64,000 nucleotides of DNA from Neophaeotheca triangularis (lineage: Eukaryota). The position numbers and the translations under genes were made by a program. The stretch is taken from NCBI GenBank assembly GCA_054600435.1, contig BAAIJX010000005.1, positions 434,001 through 498,000 on the forward strand. Direction: 5' to 3'. Within the stretch, counting starts at the first letter, position 1, and every line of letters starts with the position of its first letter. Below the pieces are notes generated by a model. It had not been told where the DNA came from. It saw only the letters and a list, made by a program, of their open reading frames with translations, and ran no database searches. Positions 35,799 to 51,045 of the stretch are shown piece after piece.

Positions 35799-36942
35799 TC
35801 ATGCGTGTTCGTAAGCTCCATGCCTTCCAGCCACGCCCGTTCGACGGGCACTGTTCAGCTTGACGAAACCAAAGCAGACACCAATGATTGCGAAGAAGAT
35901 GAAGACCTTGTTGGTGATACTAAGGCCCATAGCGCCAGGGCCACCAAGCTCAGCAATAATTTCTTCTTTGTGTTGGTGCAAGGGCTTGTCCAACGTCTCC
36001 CCAACCGCAGCGTTAACGTCTTCAGTCGTGTCTTCGTTGAGCGGTTCGGTAGAGCCAGCCGAGCCTTCTAGACCTGCGATTCAGAGCACAGTCAGCCAGG
36101 TCTCTTCTCAAACTGCACTGCAGACATAACAGCGCACCACATACTGGGCATATAGAATCTGCAGGGCAGAACGACTAGAGCTCGCTTCTAATACCTTCTT
36201 CCGGCATCTCCAGCTCTCCGCTCTTAATGATCTTGACAGTCTGCTTGGGCTTGTCTCCTGGATTCTTTGGTACGTTCTCAATCTTCTCGACAATGTCGTA
36301 ACCCTCAAGCACCTCGCCGAAGACGACGTGCTTGCCATCAAGCCAGCTGGTGATGGCGGTCGTGATGAAGAATTGGGAGCCGTTGGTGTCCCTACCAGAG
36401 TTGGCCATGCCTGGAGAGAATCATTAGCATGTGCACAATCGGGGTATAGCAATATTTTAAGGGGGCTTACTGAGCAGGCCCTTCTTAGTGTGCTTGAGCT
36501 TGAAGTTCTCGTCGGGGAACTTGGCGCCGTAGATGCTCTTTCCGCCAGTGCCATCGCCCCTGGTGAAGTCGCCACCTTGGATCATGAACTGCTTGATGAC
36601 ACGGTGGAAAGTCGATCCCTCGTAACCGTAGCCCTCTTGTCCAGTAGCCAAAGCGCGGAAGTTCTCGGCAGTCTTGGGGACAGTGCCGCCGTAAAGACCC
36701 ATGGTGATGCGGCCAATCTCCTCATCACCATGCTGAATGTCGAAATACACCTGGTGTGTGATCTTTGGCGCTCGGGTTAGCGGTTCGGCTCTGGGTTCGA
36801 ACTCCTCCATGATTGGGGTGAGCTCGCGTCCAGCGAAACGTACTTTAGGGCCCTTAGCGGCTTCGGCGGTTTGGGAGAAGTAAAAGAAGATAACGGTCAA
36901 AATGAGCATGCAGCTCACTGCGAGACGCTGGAAGGAAGCCAT
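35799..36942 (-). CDS. cypB: Cyclophilin B, ER peptidyl-prolyl isomerase, with two possible C-termini
   Basis: Signal peptide; exons 36942-36844, 36762-36471 and 36410-36175 (ending ..EEGIRSEL*). [16 protein letters not shown] and [10 protein letters not shown] motifs. Optional intron 36194-36074 leads to a TM-encoding exon ending at 35799. Confidence 0.93.
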
Positions 36943-37201
36943 GATTGCTCAATGGATAGTATGGGTAGGGTGAGTGAGGTAGGTAGAGGATTGTGGACAG
37001 CTGGAGAGAGGGACTCGATCTAGGAGACTGGGACACTACTGCAAGGTGGGGAATGCAAGGGCACCGCGGATTGGACCCTGCCGACGACCGCCAAGACATG
37101 AGGCTCAAGTGAAGCCGACTGCACCTGCAGACGACAGCTCCAACTGCCATTGAAGACCTGAGTCCAAGATAGACATCGAATAGCGACTGCCGACAGCCAC
37201 A

Positions 37202-38841: not shown

Positions 38842-40304
38842 TGTTGATGTGTTGTCGGACTATTCGTTGGTGTTGCTGGCGTTTTGGTCTCTGTGCGAAG
38901 TGGTACGGTTCTGTAGGTTTTTGTATTCGATGGTAGGAAAGAGATTATCGGGGTAGCGATATATCGAGGCCTTAATATAGGTTTGAACTTCCGTCCTCTG
39001 CGGCAGTGAGCAAAGGTGAGAGGGCGCGAATACAGTTGCCTGGCAGGAGAGAAGCGGCCTCGACAACGGTTTCGCCGTCCTCGATCCCACTGTCCTCAGA
39101 GTTCTCTGGTTCCATTAACCAATAGGATTGCTAAACGGGATGACAGACTTACTAAACTGATAGCCTACCTTTTTGACGCATTGCCTTTCAATGTTGTTTG
39201 ACACGTAAGGGCAGCAGAATAGGGTGCACCTAGTATGAGAATAGAGCCTCCTAAAGATCCTTCAAAGACAAGTGAAGTCATTCACGGACGAATAAGGAAC
39301 GAGAATGTACAGACAAAGGAGGCTCAAAGCTATTGGCAAGTTGTGACCGCAGCCAAGTGACCCCAAAGTAGAGACGGCAGAGGCGGTCATGCCGTTGGAG
39401 CCTTTGAGCAATCCTTTGGCCCCGTTTGACGCAAGCGAGAATGGCAGATGGTCCCTGTAGTGCCTAGAGAGTCTGCCTGAAGTTTCTCCCGGACATAGCT
39501 CAAACAGGTACCGTACAGGGATCAAGAGGCCGCAGAGAGTGTCGATACCGAGTTGGGAACGCCGACCACCCTGTAACATGTGATCGAGAATATATGCGTT
39601 CGGGCATCCTTCCGGAGAGGGCGGGAGGTGTGGTCCTGTTGTCCCTCATGGCCTAAAGGCTAACGAAGCTGTTCAGCCTCAGCGGGGGTCTATTGGAGCC
39701 CACGGTATCCTAGACGAACCAAAGAAGATTGGACGATGGTACATCCGGTTACTCAAGCAGACCATCTTCTTCGGCATTCGCGACGAGCGGTTGACGGCAA
39801 ATGCGATAGCCGTAAGGTCGCTCCAGATTTCTTTCTCCTGTTGGTCAATGGAGCTTGACCGGTGAAGTGACTGGGCGGCTGTTCGGGTGGACTTGCACTC
39901 AATGCAATTAGGCGTTTCCTCCGCCTCGTCTGCACGGCCGAGACCGAGCCGATATAGTGAACCAGCATCAGCCGCAATCGAAAGTACATTCTATGTAAGG
40001 ATAGTGTTGTTGTAGTTGGAATGATTCAAAGGGAGGTAGCTGCTTACCGAGCAAGGCCAAGCCTTCCGGTTGTATATGGTAGGGCTGAAGTTGGATCTGA
40101 ATCCTTCGCCCAACATAGAAACACAAGACTTAAACTCTCCAAGTACGGAGGATCAGATCTCGCACGATTGAGATACTGGAACGTGCTGCCATGAACGGGT
40201 TCGTGGATGAAATGTGGAAACGTGTCGAAGGAGCAAAGGCATAAATTATCTAGCTAAACAACACCCATGCAGATCCAACCGCAACCACGGAATCAAAGCA
40301 ACAA

Positions 40305-40425
40305 AATGGCAGCCAGCCGAACTGGTACGCCAAGCAAATCAACAAGCACCCCATGCCCTCCAAATATGCCGAAAACAAGCGCAACGCAGAAAGCAAGAAT
40401 GGCAGCCAGCCGGACTGGGACGCCA
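40305..40425. repeat. 28-bp direct repeat (26/28 identical) at 40305-40332 and 40398-40425, just downstream of the Argonaute stop
   Basis: aatggcagccagccg(a/g)actgg(t/g)acgcca occurs twice with a 93-bp period. Confidence 0.9.
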
Positions 40426-40485
40426 GGTGCCGCAACGGCAAATTCAAAGAGGTCAGTAAAGACAGAATGGCCGCTGTGAAACGAC

Positions 40486-43400
40486 CTAGAGGTAGAACAT
40501 GATGTCGTCCAAATCTGGGTGCCAGGGGTTGCGGCGAGTGAGACCGTACTTCAACGGAGCTTGCGGGCTTGCGGAGACGTGGTGGTAGATCGCAAGGTCA
40601 CGCACGAAGTCCTTAACTTGATCGGCGTAGCGCTTGGGTCCCCAGCCAGCGTCATTGAGCTTTGCTTTAAAGGTTCCGGGATATCGATGAACAGTGTTGT
40701 CGTAGCTCATGAGCCAGGGACGAAGATAGGCGCGTCCTCGGTCGCAGAGGCGATCGGCGTAGTAGGCAGGAGCACAGTAGGAGACCCCTGTGGTAGAGCG
40801 AGCGTAGACGTAGGAGAATTCATGGGTGACGGCTTGCAGGTCGTCCGCCGAAAGACCCATGCCATTCATGAGGCAAACGTAATGAGCGCTGCGGGCGGTT
40901 CCCTTGATGGCGTTGTGAGATTGCAGGAAGAAATCGAACTTGTCAGGATGCGTGACCACACGCTCGACCACGAGACCCGGCTTTACATTGCCATTTCGGT
41001 GGCGGTTCTGCCCGTCGTCATCTTTGGGAAAGAAACGAACATTGTGGCGCTTGCCTACGACAACGTATGTGAGTTCGAAAGGCACCTGTTGAAGGGTGGG
41101 TGCAGCGCGGTGAGTTTCTTCGTATTGCTCCCACGCATTTGTGAGCTCTCTGTTGTGTTGCTTCTGCAAAGCAGTGATGGGGTTGCTGTTGAAGTCGGCA
41201 CTCGGAGTGTCAACTGGAACGGGCCAGCCATCACCTCCAAGGGGCACGGCGCCAGACTGCGGACCTAGAGGAGGCCTCGTGGCTGCGGTGCCGATGGCGA
41301 GTCTATCGAGGCCAAGAGTTGCCCTCCAATCCAAGTATTCCTGCGCCCAATTGAAAGCTGATTGGATCTGTGGTATTTCGAAAGACTGAAGCTTGTCATA
41401 CTGACTCTCGCTCACACCATCTCGATAGAAAAGCATGCGGCCAGGCAGGACACCATCGTGCTTGTTAGCCCAGTCAACGAGACGCTCCTTGACCATGTCG
41501 CCCAACTCGACGATCTCCTCCTTCTTGCTGCGCTGCAGCCGCATAGACCCTGGAAAGTGCACAAACTGGCTGTCCGTGCTCCCGACGACACCGGCAATCG
41601 AGGGCGTTCCGTCACTGCAGCCAGCACCAGGGTGGGTGACGTCGGCTCCGATGACAATGGTTCCTTGGCGGGGTGTTTTTGGATCGAAACGAATGCTTTT
41701 GAACGCGGCCTCCGTCAAAGTGTGACAAGGTATGTTGGTCTTCAAGGCGTATTTGAGAGCAATGTTGGAGCCATGCTGGGCAGCAAGGTAAGTCCCTTTC
41801 GGAGGCTGCATGCATATAGTCCTGAGACCAAGTCGAATTTCTGCCACGCGTTTGATCGAAGAGTAGACGTCAAAATCTTTCTGGAGCAACACCAGCACGA
41901 CATCACTGCGACCGGCATTCTTATACGCCTTCAAGTGGCCCTCAAGAGTCTCGTCAAACTCGGGAGACCGTGGCTGGTAGTAGCGCCCAATGCCTTGCAT
42001 GCCGTTATTGGACGGCGATGTCCAAGTCGAGCTCTGGCTCGGTGTGCCGAGCAACCCATGCGCTGAAAGCTGGGTACTCAAATTCTGTAGCCAGCTGTGA
42101 GGGTTTGGATGGTTGCTGGCGTTGAAAAACAAGAGTCTGGTCATGACGGGCGACCGCGTGAATTTTACACCCACTAGGTTCCAACTGGCATTGTCGGCAC
42201 TTGGAAACTGCTGCTTGTTCGCGTACTGTAGCGTAGGCGGAGTCAACCTGAACGCGGGAACCCTCATCATATCTTGGCCTACGATGATGCCGTTGTTCTG
42301 CAAAAGGCCGCGCTGCCCATGTTGATTGAAACCAAACATCTGAAGGCCGTTGGAAAGGATGCGTCCTTTGGATGTCGCTGGATTCAGTTCCGCGAAGCGA
42401 ACCATTCCGTTGGTTTGGGGAGGCGACAGCAACCCCCTGAGGCTCTGGAACTCAACGATCTCGAGCTTGTCGCCAGGTATCCAAACCGCACCGCCAGAGC
42501 CAAATGCAGATTGGCGCGATTTCCCAATGTTGACAAAGTAATCGTCCATACAAGTTGATTGTTGGCTAGGATGGAGTGCTCCAGGGGGGTCTTCAAGGCC
42601 ATAGACGCTCGTGAAACCACTTCAAAGCCGTCGTCGTGCGATCAGAAGCCTTCTGATCCTCGTTTTGCCCGATCTTCGGCTTCTCGCTCGCAGCGGCAAT
42701 TTCACTGATGAAGCGAAACTTGCGATTCTCTTCTGATTGATGTTGGACGCCCTTGCTTTTGAGGTCCGCAATTGCTGCCGGAGTGACCTGAGACTTGTCG
42801 AGGTCATACATGAGTCGCACCTTGACACCCTTGAGGGCTGCAATGATGCTCCTCAGGGAGGCGCCCGAGGCGTGCTGTGACCGGATAAAACTGGAAACGG
42901 TGATGTTTCTCTTGAAGAAAGGTGACGTGGTAGTGTTGATGTTCAAGATCAGATTTTCGGTACCAGGTCGCGTCGAAGCAGAGAAACCTTTGATGGCACG
43001 GACCATACGATCCAAGTCTCTGTGATCGTTGGCGGCTTTGGTGTAGAAGCGGCCGTTGCTCGATGGGTGGTAGAGGTCGTGGCGAGCACGGGCTTGCCTC
43101 GTCAGGAACGCATTGAGACCTCGCATCAAGACCGCTGGCACACTTTTGTTCCAGGTAGTGGCACTTCCGTCGTAAAAAAGTTGCGTCATGGGAAGCGTGC
43201 ATTGTATCACCTGTTGAAAGCTGATTTCGATACGCGCGATCTCGAGCGGAACGCCTAATTCATTTTGATACCAGAAGTTCGCGATTCTGCCCGGAGTAGA
43301 CAGGTCGATCTGAGCAAACTGTTGTGTGGACCACAAGAGATCGCCATCCGTGATCCAGCTCGTGGACGGGACGTTGAAGGAATTCGATCCTTGCGCAACG

Positions 43401-43882
43401 GCGTCCATGATCAACAGCTTTTCGGCCAACTTCTTGACTTTGATGTCACCTCTGGGGGTCGCAAACTGGCGGGTCATGTCCAGGGAATAGACCCATATTT
43501 TGTTCGGTGGTTGCAGCGTGAAATGGTTGGTCTCGACGTGAAAAACTTTCGACTTGGCGTCGAGATTGGAAAAGGAGGCACGATATCCAAGTTCAAGGAC
43601 TTTCGCCCGCAATACACCCTCGGAGACAGAATCGGGATCTCCGGGGTTTTCGCGATTACGTACAGCGGCTCGCACGTTCTCGAGAATAGTCTCATCATGT
43701 CTGGCGATTTCGTCTCGATCGATAGCTTGCCCCTGCTGAGCCTCCATGAAAGTGCTTTGAGCAGCCTGGTGGTTTCCGCGTTGTGCGCCGCCTGGCTTTT
43801 GGCCCGACTTCGAAGGTGCTGCATGCCCTCCACCCCATCTCTTTTCACCGCCTGGTCCGCTGGTGGTATCTTTCGGGCCCAT
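40486..43882 (-). CDS. Divergent Argonaute (N-L1-PAZ-MID-PIWI) interrupted by a one-base frameshift in PAZ
   Basis: Upstream frame: VETNHF, GFSASTRPG..LILNINTTTSPFF and LKGVKV. Downstream frame: IGADVTHP, PSIAGVVGS, FYRDGVSESQ, VVVGKRHNVRFFP, FFLQSH..IKGTARSAHY and YYADRLCDRGR. The frames join if one base in 42607-42616 is skipped, giving 1131 aa. Confidence 0.93.
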
Positions 43883-44451
43883 GGTGTTTGAAGTGCACCT
43901 CAAACGAAGGCAGAAAGATGCTGACGATGAGAGAAGACAAGCAGTCCAGCGAGCGAACCAGCGGATATATATACCGACCCAGGAGGAGCACAAGCTTGCT
44001 TTCCGCAAAGAAGATTAACGGGCAAGCTGGACAAGCTCTTCCTGAATGAGATGCTCAGTCGCAAGCATGACGCGCAGCAAACACTGGAAAATTGTATGCA
44101 AAGGCCTAAGGCGTTCACGACAGGGTTGCTTGGCAGCAATTTGCGGAGTCAAAGAGAACGGAAGCTGGGGTCAAAGGGTTCTGTCTCATCTCCGGGATGG
44201 TCGCTTTGGGAGTGAAGCAGCCTTTTGTTCTCTAAGTCTAAAAGATAGCTCGAGTCGAAGTGGACTGGCCGGGTCTTTCGTTAGCCTTCGAGTGACTGCC
44301 TCTGTTTGAAGTTGACTTTGGGCCTCTAAGCCTCATGTACGCCCGAGACCGGGGGAGTAAAAGCTTATCGGTCAAATCTTAGCCTCGCGCCTGGAGTCGA
44401 AAGCATCTGCATTGGGTATCATATCATCTATAGGCTCCTCCTCAATCTCGG

Positions 44452-45261
44452 TCAGTTTCCAACATTGAAGTGCTGCAAATGCATCTTATTTCCTCGTCCC
44501 TGGCGGACTACGGGCTCCGCCTCGTGGGGCAGAGGCGCCGAAACTTTCTCCTGTAATTCGGGCTCTGCGGCCGCAGTCCCGCTCCCATACTCATCGCCAT
44601 CGTTGTCCTCCTCGTGTGCCGGCTCCCATCCAGCGATCTTCCTCAGTATCCGGTTCTCCTCCCTCAGCCCAGCGATCACGCCCTTGTCCCCTAACCTGTC
44701 TTCCTCTCTCTCCCGCATGGTGAGTCTTAGGCTTTGGCTCAACCCCTGAAGTCTTGCCTGCCACTCCTGGTGTACGATCTGGGCCTCGACTGTCTCGCGT
44801 CGTGAGTCGTTGAGTAGCTGCGTGTAATGCTGGTGCAATTGGGTAGTGTGTTGCTGTTGCGCGTAGCAATACGAGCGAATCCTCTGCGTGGCGTCCGTAA
44901 AAGCGTCTTCGTACAGACCCTGCAAACGCAACAGCTCCTGGTGCGTGCTCTCGAGACTTGTGATGCGAACATGCGCCGTGGAAAGAGCGGTTTGGAGTTG
45001 CGAGGCAGTAGGTTGAGAGGGATCGGCGGGTGTTGTTGCGATTGTCTCTTTCTGCGATTGTGCTCGTTCGACTCTTGCCAGCTCCTCTTGTAGCTCGCCC
45101 CAGTCTTCTCGGTTTTGTGCTAGCCAGCCGCTGAGTTGCTCCATGTTCTGCATGAGGGTTTGCATGTCGGCGTAGTGGCCGGCCGGGGGCATAGCGGAGC
45201 CGTCCATGGCGTACACCGCTGCATTTTGTTGCGCCTGGAGCGCTCCGTTTTGGTTTGCCAT
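44452..45261 (-). CDS. Uncharacterised coiled-coil protein
   Basis: Likely start MANQNG.. at 45261, divergent from ies1. Heptad-rich segments (LMQNMEQLSGWLAQNREDW; LREENRILR) and coding-like composition. Confidence 0.7.
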   Translation of the reverse strand: MANQNGALQAQQNAAVYAMDGSAMPPAGHYADMQTLMQNMEQLSGWLAQNREDWGELQEELARVERAQSQKETIATTPADPSQPTASQLQTALSTAHVRITSLESTHQELLRLQGLYEDAFTDATQRIRSYCYAQQQHTTQLHQHYTQLLNDSRRETVEAQIVHQEWQARLQGLSQSLRLTMREREEDRLGDKGVIAGLREENRILRKIAGWEPAHEEDNDGDEYGSGTAAAEPELQEKVSAPLPHEAEPVVRQGRGNKMHLQHFNVGN

Positions 45262-45627
45262 GTTGAGCGGAATGACCACAGAGGAGGTGGAGGCAGTAAA
45301 GGGTGCCCAGTGGAGGTTAAAGTGTAGCTCGGATGTGGAGGTGTCGTTTGTACAGCTCCTTGCCTTCCCGATTAGGAACTGGCTTCGTGCGGCTGCTCCC
45401 GACAGCTGCAGTGAGCCAACAATTGGAAGCTCGTGATAGCAGCCTCGCTTGCTTGTTCGCGAAGATTGTCGAGGCTCTGTCAATCTACTTTGATTACAAC
45501 GTCAGTAGACAAGTGTCATCCCCAAACGCCATGTCGCACTCCAGGTGATAGAACAGAACGACGCGACAACGAAGCCACGGCGTCACAGGGCATCTCTCTG
45601 TAATACGCTGGAGCAAGGGTTGTCATA

Positions 45628-48339
45628 ATGGCTTCCCTCCAACACATCCTCTCGGCGGATCCGGAAGAGTCTGCTAGAGATTCGCCCAAGGGCAATGCGA
45701 CTGCAATGGCCCCGACAAGTGCGCCGCAGCCACTGCCAACGGCGCATTCGTCGCAACAACAGGACGAGCAGAATGTTGAGACCCCAAAGACCAACGACGA
45801 TGCGCCAGGCGGCGACGAACCACAGTACACTTCTACAACAACGAGCACTCGCCGCAACGCCTCGGGTTCCGTAAGCTCCGTATATTCGGGGAACAAGATA
45901 CGGCACTTGAAGAAAGAGGATGGCATACCACTATGGAGGAAGGACATACAATATGACTTCTTACACCGTGTCTTTTACGATCCAACACGCACATTCACCA
46001 AACAATCGGATGGTACGAGCGGCCATACCTTTGCGGATGTCTACGTAGACGCAATGGCCAAAAGCAGCAAGACGAGCAAAATATTGAAAGAGAAGTTGCT
46101 GCAGGACCAGGAAGGTGCCATCTCCATGGCCATGGTCTGCCTCCTCGTCAACGTTGGCAGAATGAATACGACATTGAATTTCTTCCCGGAAATGCGAGCC
46201 CAGCTGCGAACCTACCATTCCATCCCCGCCCTTCAGGCCCACCAGGACCCCACTGCGTACAAACAATTGCAGGATGCTCCTCGCCTGAAGTCAATATTGA
46301 AGGGCGCCACCGAAGACGAGCCTCAACCGAGTACCATGGAGGAGGTCAGAGCGATGTCACGCCCGAGAACTAACCCTGTCAATCTGATCTTCGTCATGAG
46401 CCAGTACGCACCTAAAATAAGCGAGCTGCACTTCCAGCCTCCCCGTGACTTCTTCGACTTGGTGATGCGCAGCTCGTTGAGTAGTGAGAGTCGAGCCCGT
46501 GCATTCCTCTGGCTTCTCTGGTGGTACTTGGAGAGCGACTTCACCTACGAAGATAGCCAGCGCAACCCCTTTGGAGCGGGAATTTACGGGGAAGGCGAGG
46601 AGGGAACCGGAGCACTGCCACTCAAGGTTCCAGCATTTGAGAGTTTGACCGAAGAGCAGGCTGCGCTCGAGAATGTTGATACGGATGACGAACAGCTTTT
46701 TGGTGAAGTCAAAAGGAAGGAGCGTATAGCCATCTTGGCAAGCGAGCCTAGTCCAGCCATGACTGCCTTGAAGCGGGCTCGCAAAGAAAAGGGTCTCGGA
46801 CCAGGTGGCAATGCCGGCGTTAGTGACGACGAGGGGACGGAATCCGGATCCCACAGCAAGCCACCGACTCTTTCGGCCAAAGGCATACCGCCCAGCTTTG
46901 ATGCTGGGAGTGACCATACCCGTTCCCCCTCTCCCGCCGCTGGTAGAGGAGGCGGCTTCAATGCCGTGAATGCAACACCAAAATCAGACATGAGGATCAA
47001 CACGCTACTCAACAACGAAGAGAGCGTGCGAGAGCCCTCTCCTCCACCACTCGCACCTCCCAAGTCTGCACCGTCAGGCTCTAATAAGAAAGGCCCTGGC
47101 CGTGGAAATTGGCGACGTAACAAAGCAAAGCATGAAAATATGACACCAACGTCCTCCGGTCCAGCCGGCCGTACAGGATCGGATAGCTCCCATCATGTAC
47201 CCCTCCTCCCCAACACCTCCAACCGCTACGGCTTCGTCAACGAGACCCCACACTCCTTGCTCCAACCCTCAACTCCCTCTGGTAACCCCAGCGCAGGCCC
47301 CGGCACGAGCTCCTTCCAGACCAACTTCAGCGCCTTCCAACCCGCTCCAGGCTCGCCCCCAGCCCAAGTCTCATTTCAACGCCCCACCTCCTCCGCCCAA
47401 AACGACCCCAACCACGTCCCGACCCCCTCCTACCAGGCCCAAAAACGCGGCAGAGGCGTCACCCAGCACCAATCCGCCATCATCAATCACCGTAAGCAGC
47501 AAATTGGCTGGCTTCTCGACCGCCAAATCCGCAAAGCCCATGCCACGGCACGCCATCGCCGAGATGACGAGGGTCCTATGCTGCGAGCCTGGAAACGCAT
47601 CAAACTACTTCCGGCAGATTACGACAGCGAGGAAGAGGGCGTTAGGCGAAGGAAAATGACAGACAAAACCGAACCCGGAGAGTCTGAGGTAAAAACCAAG
47701 GGCAAGGACAAGGATAAGGACAAGGACAAGGACAAGGATAAGGATAAGGAGCACATCGACGCCCTTACGAAGCAAGAAGACCTCGAACTAGCCAGGCGGC
47801 CTCGCGTGCTAATGGCGGGCCTTGCAAGACTGCCACGGGAGCCGGAAGACGTCGGGGAGGAAGCGAAATCGGCTGCCAAGACACTCAGAAGAGCCAGTAG
47901 GCGGCTGGAGAGGTGGGCTGACCGCGCACCCGGTGCAGGTGTGTTGCGGAGACGGCAGTTGGAGCTCGAGCGCGCGGCTGCGGCGCAGAGGTCAATGTCC
48001 GATGAGGCTTTGCCCGGGCGCTCGAGATCTCGGCAAGAGGACGCATCTATGGATCGCGAGGGTCTGGCAATCTTGGATGAAGGGCGGGGTGTTCGGGCCA
48101 GCGTGCAGAGACAGCTTAGCGCCGGTCATAGCCGTCACGGGAGGAGTCGTGGGCCGGGTGGGGGTGAGGGGCGCGTCGCTGTTAAGAAGGAGGGGTGGCA
48201 GGGTGGGGATGGACGGGAGCAGGAATATGAGGAAGGAGGCGGGGAAGGGGAGCTAGATGAGGAGGATAGGGAGTTGCTTGGGGAGGTGGATGTACAAGAG
48301 AGCGAGAGCGAGAGTGATACGGAGATGAGGGATGCTTAG
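45628..48339 (+). CDS. ies1: INO80 complex subunit Ies1
   Basis: KIRHLKKEDGIPLWRKDIQYDFL, LLVNVGRMNTT, EMRAQLRTYHSIP, KQLQDAPRLKSILK and SRARAFLWLLWWYLE. Confidence 0.9.
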   Translation: MASLQHILSADPEESARDSPKGNATAMAPTSAPQPLPTAHSSQQQDEQNVETPKTNDDAPGGDEPQYTSTTTSTRRNASGSVSSVYSGNKIRHLKKEDGIPLWRKDIQYDFLHRVFYDPTRTFTKQSDGTSGHTFADVYVDAMAKSSKTSKILKEKLLQDQEGAISMAMVCLLVNVGRMNTTLNFFPEMRAQLRTYHSIPALQAHQDPTAYKQLQDAPRLKSILKGATEDEPQPSTMEEVRAMSRPRTNPVNLIFVMSQYAPKISELHFQPPRDFFDLVMRSSLSSESRARAFLWLLWWYLESDFTYEDSQRNPFGAGIYGEGEEGTGALPLKVPAFESLTEEQAALENVDTDDEQLFGEVKRKERIAILASEPSPAMTALKRARKEKGLGPGGNAGVSDDEGTESGSHSKPPTLSAKGIPPSFDAGSDHTRSPSPAAGRGGGFNAVNATPKSDMRINTLLNNEESVREPSPPPLAPPKSAPSGSNKKGPGRGNWRRNKAKHENMTPTSSGPAGRTGSDSSHHVPLLPNTSNRYGFVNETPHSLLQPSTPSGNPSAGPGTSSFQTNFSAFQPAPGSPPAQVSFQRPTSSAQNDPNHVPTPSYQAQKRGRGVTQHQSAIINHRKQQIGWLLDRQIRKAHATARHRRDDEGPMLRAWKRIKLLPADYDSEEEGVRRRKMTDKTEPGESEVKTKGKDKDKDKDKDKDKDKEHIDALTKQEDLELARRPRVLMAGLARLPREPEDVGEEAKSAAKTLRRASRRLERWADRAPGAGVLRRRQLELERAAAAQRSMSDEALPGRSRSRQEDASMDREGLAILDEGRGVRASVQRQLSAGHSRHGRSRGPGGGEGRVAVKKEGWQGGDGREQEYEEGGGEGELDEEDRELLGEVDVQESESESDTEMRDA

Positions 48340-48963: not shown

Positions 48964-50015
48964 TTACGACGAAGACCCCGAGGGCCCCTCCGGCTCAAAG
49001 TCCGCAATCTCAAACAACAGGCATGGAGCGCCGATCGTTCGAGTTTCGGGGTCTAGATCGTCGGACAAGAATAGCCTAACGGACTAATTGTGACATATTA
49101 GTAGATACCACTGAAGGCGGATGTAGATGGTGCAAGTCGCTACTGACCTTGATCGTCTTCCACCCGAGTACGTTCCGATGCTGAAAAAGCAAATGCGCCA
49201 CACCCACACCGTTGGGCGTAGCGAGCAGTGCTGTACCAGCATCGTCGGCGCCATCCATTGCGAACACCGTACCAGGCCACTTATCTGGAGCTACGGTGTC
49301 GCCACTGCCGGTTCGAGCAAGCATCTGTCCGATCAGGGCCTTAGTCGTGGTGTTGGCAATGTCGTGGTGAATGACTTTATTCAAGGCCTTTGCGTCCCTC
49401 TTCCGCTTACGGCACTGGTGATCCCACTCGAGGCAGACCACGTCGCTCCAGTGCTGAAGGGGCGTGATGTCCCCCACGAACTTCTCTCCAAATTCCTCTG
49501 CCAGAGCTTGCGCAGCATGGCGCGGTCCGTAGTTGTTGTTGGCGATGATAGTGCCGTAGCTGGGCATGTACGTGTTGCAGTAAGTCGCTCCGGCCAGCTT
49601 GTGAGGGTCAGTATCCTGCGAAAGTACTTGCACGTCGATTGCAAAAATTTACCGTGTACGACCAACTGGACCTTCTGAAAGATTGGCCTTCGTCGGACTG
49701 GAGGTGCGCGATGTGGAGTCCGGCTTCGGTATCCTGCTGATCGACGCCAATGCCTCCTTGCGCTTGCGGAGTTTTAGCGACGATGGAGAGCCCGTTGAAC
49801 TCAATAAGTCCAAGATAAAGGGGTTCCTCAACGCTTTCGGGGTGATAGTGCCAATCCCATGAGGCGAGATCGGCGTAGCGAGTCCACTCCGACTGGATGG
49901 CATTGGCGTCGTGTAGAAGATGCATCAATTTGCGGCCTTTGGTCACAGCTTCAGTCCATACCAGGTTTTCGTCTCCCGACTGGATTTTACTTTGCGCGTT
50001 GTCATTGTCGGCCAT
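48964..50015 (-). CDS. Uncharacterised fungal protein, paralogue A (HWSDVV / TPNGVGVAHLLFQH motifs)
   Basis: Exons 50015-49653, 49597-49148 and 49083-48964, all in frame with canonical introns. Motifs are shared with 51046-52114. Confidence 0.8.
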
Positions 50016-51045
50016 GTTGAGCTTACAGATGCTGATTCAATACAGGCACTGCGGTCGTTTAGGACTTCAATTGAAGGGTCTTGTAGACCACCAATCTTCT
50101 AGAGGAATTCCGGCCCCTTTGTCTCTAGTCCACGGCCTTCTCTTCAGTTTCTGGGCCCTCGTGGGTGATGCGAGAGCTATATTTGAATTTCTTGATACAA
50201 TCAGAACCGCCACCAAGCTACTTGCGCTACCCCTACATCTCAGATGAGCAGATCCCGCTGCAATTGTTCGATCCAATTGCACGATGCCTCACCGGCCGAC
50301 CAATCAATCCTGGAAGTACGGCTCAATTCTTTTGTGAACTTACGCAGAGACGTCGGGTACTTCGTTTACTCCTTGCAGATTGCTTTGGCATAACGGTCCT
50401 CGTCGCTAGAGAAGCCATTGCTGAAGGGGGCATTTATTTTACTTCGGCTGGCCCCGGCAACTTCACTTACGGTTTCACTTCGAGACCCTCGACATCACGT
50501 ACCAAGGAATAACCCCGAGACACCATCTTCCAACCCAGCTTCCCAAGTGTGGACAACCGCATGTGCGCCAGGAGACCCAGGCCTTCGGTGGTAAGTGCTC
50601 ATGTCAGTGTTCCACACGTTGCTCCTAGCCATCGTATGCTCAAACTCGTCCTCAAATAGCCAGTGCAGGGAGCCGCCCATGCTCAATTAGTTGCCTTCTA
50701 CAGCAACTCAACCTAGGCCGCTACGGGGATCTTTCTTGCCGGGAGCATTCAGGAACTGCCGCGCTTTCTGAAATATCCGAAGTTCCTCTTACTCCCGGCG
50801 TACGCTGCGATTTACTGACCCACGATGATCTTTCCCACGCGACGGTACTTGATGCACTGGTTTGTTCACATGGCACCAACGTTCAGGGGCTACAGCTCTA
50901 ACAAGTAGCTGAAGAAAAGTAGACTTGATCAAATCTACCACGCAGCTCTCCAGTCCCGGCAAAGTTTAGACGTCCCTAACCTTCCACCCCTCCGCTTTGA
51001 AAACCCAGGGCTCTTCCGCCATTCCATCGAACCGACGACGTCCCA

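Follow-up and report, generated by a model that had tools for sequence, protein, structure and literature searches.

A one-base split in a Capnodiales-type Argonaute gene of Neophaeotheca triangularis, very probably a recent loss-of-function allele

An Argonaute gene on the minus strand of the fungal DNA analysed here, a stretch of 64,000 nucleotides referred to as the window, is divided between two reading frames that meet within the PAZ domain and are set apart by a single base. This arrangement raises the question of whether a full-length protein is still produced, through a programmed +1 frameshift or a cryptic intron, whether the two halves are expressed separately, whether the extra base is an artefact, or whether the gene has been broken by mutation. 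A first-pass annotation of the window had put forward a candidate +1 recoding site, with a very recent loss-of-function allele and an assembly indel as its second and third options.

The gene is intron-free and occupies 43882-40486, from an ATG at 43882 to a stop codon at 40488-40486. The features that define the split are the following:

42593 to 43882, minus strand: 5' half with the N domain, L1 and the first part of PAZ, 429 aa (Pfam, translation, alignment)
40486 to 42621, minus strand: 3' half with the rest of PAZ, L2, MID, PIWI and a clade-specific C-terminal tail (Pfam, translation, homologues)
42593 to 42621, minus strand: overlap of both frames, 29 nt (frame translation)
42614 to 42616, minus strand: T run with the extra base, the lesion itself, TTT in the window and TT in run X2 (contig comparison)
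40753 to 41643, minus strand: catalytic tetrad D326, E367, D400 and D622 in P0002 numbering (aligned to human AGO1)

The upstream frame runs from the ATG to a TGA at 42595-42593 and ends in ..TALKWFHERLWP, the final six residues of its 429 (HERLWP) being out of frame. The downstream frame is open from 42621, where it begins SGFTSVYG.., for about 710 codons, and its first ATG, at 42549, opens 687 codons. The change of frame takes place at TGG (42619-42617), TTT (42616-42614) and CAC (42613-42611), and the frames, Pfam and the alignment all confirm that an Argonaute is split there by one base. It also holds, as had been claimed, that the halves, of about 430 and 700 codons, carry no other lesion and join (with an X at the break) into a protein of 1131 aa, which aligns end to end with single-chain homologues; the alignment comprises 33 homologues chosen from 119 non-self matches plus paralogues. 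Pfam places ArgoL1 at residues 278-324 of the 5' half and ArgoL2 and Piwi in the 3' half, with L1, L2 and PIWI in the order known from eukaryotic Argonautes. Pfam PAZ gives no match in either half at E<=1, and the PAZ label rests on the alignment, where the PAZ motifs align with those of homologues carrying PF02170. The break falls on the PAZ motif T-V-x-x-Y/W-F. The tetrad is intact as DEDD, its codons starting at 41643, 41520, 41421 and 40755. No second copy of 42300-42900 was found elsewhere in the genome. The out-of-frame tail is unremarkable, as a one-base insertion leads to a stop within 7 codons at 20% of the positions of the gene.

The surroundings of the gene include a 28-nt direct repeat (40305-40332 and 40398-40425, 93% identical, spacing 93) in the region of a small plus-strand ORF, 40211-40502, just past the Argonaute stop. 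On the upstream side, 44452-48339 holds ORFs of 269 aa (minus) and 903 aa (plus) without a Pfam match, the latter perhaps resembling the INO80 subunit Ies1. Two adjacent minus-strand frames at 49076-50036 (142 and 190 codons), also without a Pfam match, are possibly exons of one gene. On the other side of the Argonaute lie a ribosomal S13 gene and a putative cyclophilin-like gene (36175-36948).

Four further Argonautes with long open frames are encoded in the genome, together with three RdRP and three Dicer_dimer matches without an internal stop. One of the four, C32, is the QDE-2-like copy (273 bits); another, C91, is the closest paralogue, 41-54% identical to the window gene, with a canonical 113-nt intron and 99.9-100% identity to P0005, a protein labelled Neophaeotheca triangularis in the source record, which makes this black fungus the most likely organism. 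A quick tree of 40 C-terminal halves places the window gene apart from C32, in a fast-evolving Capnodiales group with C91 and proteins from Vermiconidia, Hortaea and Zymoseptoria brevis (SH-aLRT 95 within a group at 100). The window gene shares with QDE-2 from Neurospora (PDB 2yhb, 154 bits) the order N-L1-PAZ-L2-MID-PIWI and the DEDD tetrad, but belongs to this separate fast-evolving group, whereas the QDE-2-like gene of the genome is C32. It also carries a PIWI insertion of about 90 aa and a C-terminal tail. The C91 paralogue (locus L010) has its 113-nt intron after the KRHN motif, at about 41031 in the intron-free window gene, and a record of run X4 is longer by 54 letters in the interval 40818-41031; the window gene may have lost an intron or arisen as a retrocopy.

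Four public runs, all in the form of contigs, were compared over 40400-44000. Run X1, the probable source run of the window DNA and as such a separate assembly, not an independent sample, consists here of a single 35-kb contig (mean word depth 129.5) with 0 differences in 3601 nt, the extra base included. Runs X3 (41457-41725 only) and X4 (short pieces only) do not reach the break, and X2 is the sole close relative covering it. X2 has the organism code of X1, a different sample and the same study code, and covers the whole gene in pieces; the shared code is not proof of one species, since X4 has it too and yet shares almost no sequence words here. X2 is about 97% identical to the window, with 106 substituted places (about 3%), and is one base short at 42614, a position covered by a single contig (depth 113.4 of 113.4) that ends 64 letters away. 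The reading TGG TTT CAC becomes TGG TTC ACG, and the frame is continuous over 1131 codons. All Argonaute domains thus lie on one polypeptide in X2, and not in the present strain. A net 3-base deletion at 42107-42110 is a further length change in X2 and keeps the frame. Two more features belong to this comparison:

42734, minus strand: second, independent one-base deletion, in one of two X2 haplotypes and absent from the window (116- versus 117-nt records over 42650-42766)
42640 to 42658, no strand assigned: perfect 9-bp inverted repeat with a 1-nt spacer, 24 nt upstream of the break and between both indel sites

The alternative X2 records over 42650-42766, of 116 and 117 nt, have depths of 56.5 and 73.2, and the deletion at 42734 shifts the reading into a frame with a stop at 42624-42622. 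Three haplotypes have been seen, one intact and two with different frameshifts 120 nt apart. The second frameshift hints at null alleles of this paralogue segregating within the species, although the record pair of X2 could represent two strains or a duplicated copy instead of two alleles. Paired half-depth contigs occur in X2 both at 42650-42766 and at 43597-43715 (56/73 and 55/62), between singles of about 110 depth, and X2 looks diploid, hybrid or mixed, in contrast to the one unbroken 35-kb contig of X1. The inverted repeat, one of four such hairpins (stem of at least 9, loop of at most 4) in the 64 kb, is probably there by chance.

The X2 comparison also allows an estimate of selection, based on 40 of the 110 differences, all of them within 40450-41338, the 3' quarter of the gene, and 37 of them coding. 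Seventeen synonymous changes on 197 sites stand against replacements in 16 codons (20 nt) on 655 sites, a replacement to synonymous ratio of about 0.35. The PIWI core (P0002 516-632) holds 7 synonymous changes versus 1 replacement, and of the 16 replacements the variable PIWI insertion accounts for 10 and the tail for 4. Since the ratio is near 0.35 and the PIWI core stands at 7:1 in these data from the 3' quarter, the gene seems to have been under purifying selection until recently.

Among the best 11 non-self matches, 10 are single proteins of 1009-1193 aa that match both halves. A representative search with the 5' half returned 114 matches, the best non-self one about 40% identical. Together with the query, the 91 new proteins include 56 that extend past PAZ, 19 (query included) that end at profile positions 330-419 and 17 that end earlier. 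Judged from their C-terminal residues and not from DNA, several of those 19 look as if they run into a GT donor just after the motif, as would be expected of intron-blind gene calls and not of conserved frameshifts. No relative turned up in a metagenome scan that used the single protein, and a scan with the alignment yielded 80 loci, none of them close, with best segments 24-47% identical. These loci, some of them duplicates, and four paralogue regions make up 84 loci, of which 41 span the motif and 43 do not. One stop-free frame is present in 33 of the 41, and the other eight change frame; in the six of these inspected (L063 and L065 were left out) the change is in every case an intron, identified in four loci by its canonical pattern (46-56 nt) and in two by visual inspection. 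The close-clade loci (L010, L015-L020 and L025) are all continuous through the motif. The PAZ-adjacent intron is found in L021, L026, L030, L051, L058 and L087, while in the Capnodiales group it is missing and about ten additional residues stand at that place. A decayed Argonaute of the same group is present at L025:3842-7124, with frame changes and several in-frame TAG/TAA stops at CAG/CAA-type positions, a RIP-like pattern.

The best explanation, and a very probable one, is a recent single-base loss-of-function allele of a fast-evolving Capnodiales-type Argonaute paralogue that was previously functional. This corresponds to the second option of the first-pass annotation, which the comparison with X2 supports. 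Replication slippage would have inserted a single T, turning TGG TTC into TGG TTT C. The restored Y/W-F-x-x-x-Y spacing and the continuous homologues point to an insertion here and not a deletion in X2, while profile scores by themselves vary by about 6 bits across the 29-nt overlap and do not tell where in it the shift lies. Ribosomes would read N-L1 and half of PAZ, add the six wrong residues and stop at 42593, and the fragment, having neither MID nor PIWI, would be unable to hold a guide. The mRNA, whose stop would come more than 2 kb ahead of the normal one, would be a likely substrate for nonsense-mediated decay. Because the product would lack MID and PIWI and its mRNA is likely to be decayed, the allele appears to be null or nearly so. 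The loss would be tolerated because the genome retains three RdRPs, Dicer-like genes and four more Argonautes, of which one is QDE-2-like and one belongs to the same clade.

Comparable alleles are reported from Cryptococcus neoformans, where 11 of 387 natural isolates carry loss-of-function mutations in five RNAi genes, AGO1 included (PMC11588098). The likeness lies in strain-level lesions (nonsense, frameshift or splice in that fungus) of RNAi genes, among them an Argonaute, that segregate within a species. There, however, the lesions are described as removing siRNAs in five strains, with some linked to hypermutation (PMC11588098), whereas here a dispensable-looking paralogue is broken and the rest of the pathway is intact as far as its sequence tells. 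Deletions of Ago2/Ago3 in Zymoseptoria are reported to have no growth or infection phenotype (PMC8303167).

A further step would be to see in this paralogue a polymorphic on/off switch, through which one RNAi branch of a black fungus would come under contingency-like control. This idea, which we consider unlikely, draws on independent single-base frameshifts in two of the three haplotypes seen, which fall in a 120-nt part of PAZ and flank the 19-nt palindrome, in a gene otherwise under purifying selection. If true, null alleles (or alleles leaky at about 1% via UUU-C) and intact ones would be kept by a trade-off, for instance between tolerance of mycoviruses or transposons and defence against them, and the short T run would allow alleles to revert.

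That the extra base is a sequencing or consensus error, with the gene intact in the cell, is quite improbable. Single-base changes in homopolymers are the classic type of error; X1 may itself be the source run, and its library type is not on record. The T run is, however, merely 2 to 3 bases long, the X1 contig has a different extent (35 kb) and carries the same base while being otherwise identical over 3601 nt, and a neighbouring control gene is whole (TCP-1 domain at 4-489 of 490, in one ORF). Because the separately assembled X1 contig carries the same base, a slip of the genome assembler is unlikely, and with it the assembly indel offered as the third option. Contigs drop variants, and the strain could be heterozygous with one intact copy.

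A cryptic intron across the break, restoring the frame in the mRNA, is very improbable, although as many as 233 GT/GC-AG pairs of at least 36 nt would restore an open frame. The first-pass annotation had cautioned that an intron might end at the CCTAG at 42566. This motif is present as described, and the caution has gained some substance from distant relatives, which have an intron of 46-56 nt 2-4 codons after the PAZ motif; a GT at 42606, in the broken frame of the window, matches the position and phase of that intron. No usable intron is nevertheless apparent. Against a profile of 21 homologues (window excluded), all 233 models score below read-through, by at least 4.1 bits; the margins of the short introns are small (4-7 bits plus about 4 bits, as the X in a conserved F column lowers the read-through baseline), and for this reason the case against an intron rests mainly on splice signals. 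The best-scoring models have poor donors and no branch point, and none of the models listed joins a near-consensus donor, a branch motif and a YAG acceptor. The acceptor at 42566 pairs with GTGGTT, GTTTCA or GCGTCT donors, without a branch motif. The 244-nt pair 42809-42566, with the donor GTATGA, would remove both the window and the X2 indels, at the price of 27 bits and most of PAZ. The in-frame acceptors for the GT at 42606 give introns of 16, 28, 229 or 241 nt, again without a branch motif; the 16- and 28-nt versions score level with read-through, but are much shorter than the introns observed, which measure 46-113 nt, and a GT at one given place is about a 1-in-16 event. A genuine intron of this genome is of another kind (GTATGT..CTGAC..CAG, 113 nt), and the close clade is coding through the stretch.

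Equally improbable is the separate expression of the 3' half from the ATG at 42549, whether by re-initiation or from an internal promoter, yielding an L2-MID-PIWI protein without PAZ that acts alone or paired with the N-terminal piece and so preserves some function. This ATG lies 43 nt past the premature stop, at the head of a 687-codon frame that includes MID and the tetrad, and public protein sets keep the halves as two proteins (P0003 for the 3' half and P0001 for the 5' half). Two records merely reflect gene calling, however, and the cut runs through the PAZ fold, while the close relative X2 encodes one chain. Re-initiation after an ORF of 429 codons is inefficient in eukaryotes, which also counts against this possibility.

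The least credible of these readings is the one that had first drawn attention to the locus, a programmed +1 shift at UGG-UUU-CAC of the PA-X type, in which tRNA-Phe would slip from UUU to UUC, selected to limit full-length Argonaute or to release an N-terminal piece. In its favour, UUU-C, the minimal P-site slip, stands in frame at the lesion, where a shift would restore precisely the X2 reading, and both halves are otherwise intact, the tetrad included. The break is, however, not conserved even in X2, the one close relative available, where the gene is continuous; the first-pass annotation had itself named continuous orthologues in close relatives as a refutation of recoding. The presence of UUU-C at the break amounts to no more than chance and is uninformative, because TTT-C arises whenever a TTC codon receives an additional T, and 30 further TTC codons exist in the gene. 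In-frame TTT-C is found seven times in the gene (at the break and at six other sites, among them AAG-TTT-CGC at 42718) and 24 times in the 8763 codons of the 18 long ORFs of the window, and three distant continuous homologues (L039, L041 and L043) carry it at the same motif with the frame unbroken.

Sites of the PA-X class are described as UUU_C with restricted neighbours, namely a UCC E site, whose change costs 40-70% of the shifting, and a preferred CGN in the A site (PMC3498833). Their reported efficiency is 0.74-1.3%, with strong conservation (PMC3498833), and a similar site in PLEKHM2 reaches about 1% (bioRxiv 10.1101/2024.08.30.610563; also PMC8310308), so that even known sites of this class are credited with only about 1%. 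The window site resembles this UCC_UUU_CGN type in having UUU-C in the P site and in the +1 relation of its frames, and differs from it in lacking UCC, CGN, conservation and an overlapping dual-coding region. Its E site is UGG and not UCC (YCC), although E-site changes are reported to lower PA-X shifting and not to abolish it (PMC3498833). Its A site, CAC, is the commoner His codon in the window (138 versus 84; 15.7 per 1000 codons), and neither CGN nor a slow codon. The 3' RNA folds no better than shuffles (z 0.1 to 1.4), giving no stimulatory structure. Unlike in PA-X, a shift would here regenerate the ancestral protein in full length, which the sister strain produces with no need to change frame. 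Titles and abstract openings among the papers listed contain no case of programmed frameshifting in an Argonaute or of recoding in a fungal cellular gene. Under the preferred reading of a broken allele, ribosomes may still slip +1 on UUU-C at a rate of about 1% or less, but such leakage would not be under selection and would probably fall short of the roughly 1% reached at the best sites known.

RIP was also considered as a cause of the break and rejected, as the lesion is an indel and the transitions between X1 and X2 are balanced (C>T 22, G>A 15, A>G 20, T>C 16).

A +1 shift that selection maintains to control an Argonaute in a eukaryote would have been an important finding, but the evidence speaks against one. 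As it stands, the locus adds one more natural null allele in a fungal RNAi gene, which by itself matters little. For annotation, the records of 429 aa and 687 aa should be treated as one gene, and the locus is a cautionary case, as every TTC codon that gains a T comes to look like a UUU-C slippery site. Beyond this, the window strain and X2 would provide a natural knockout and wild-type pair for an uncharacterised group of Capnodiales Argonautes, slicer-intact by sequence, with a hint that this paralogue may have been lost repeatedly.
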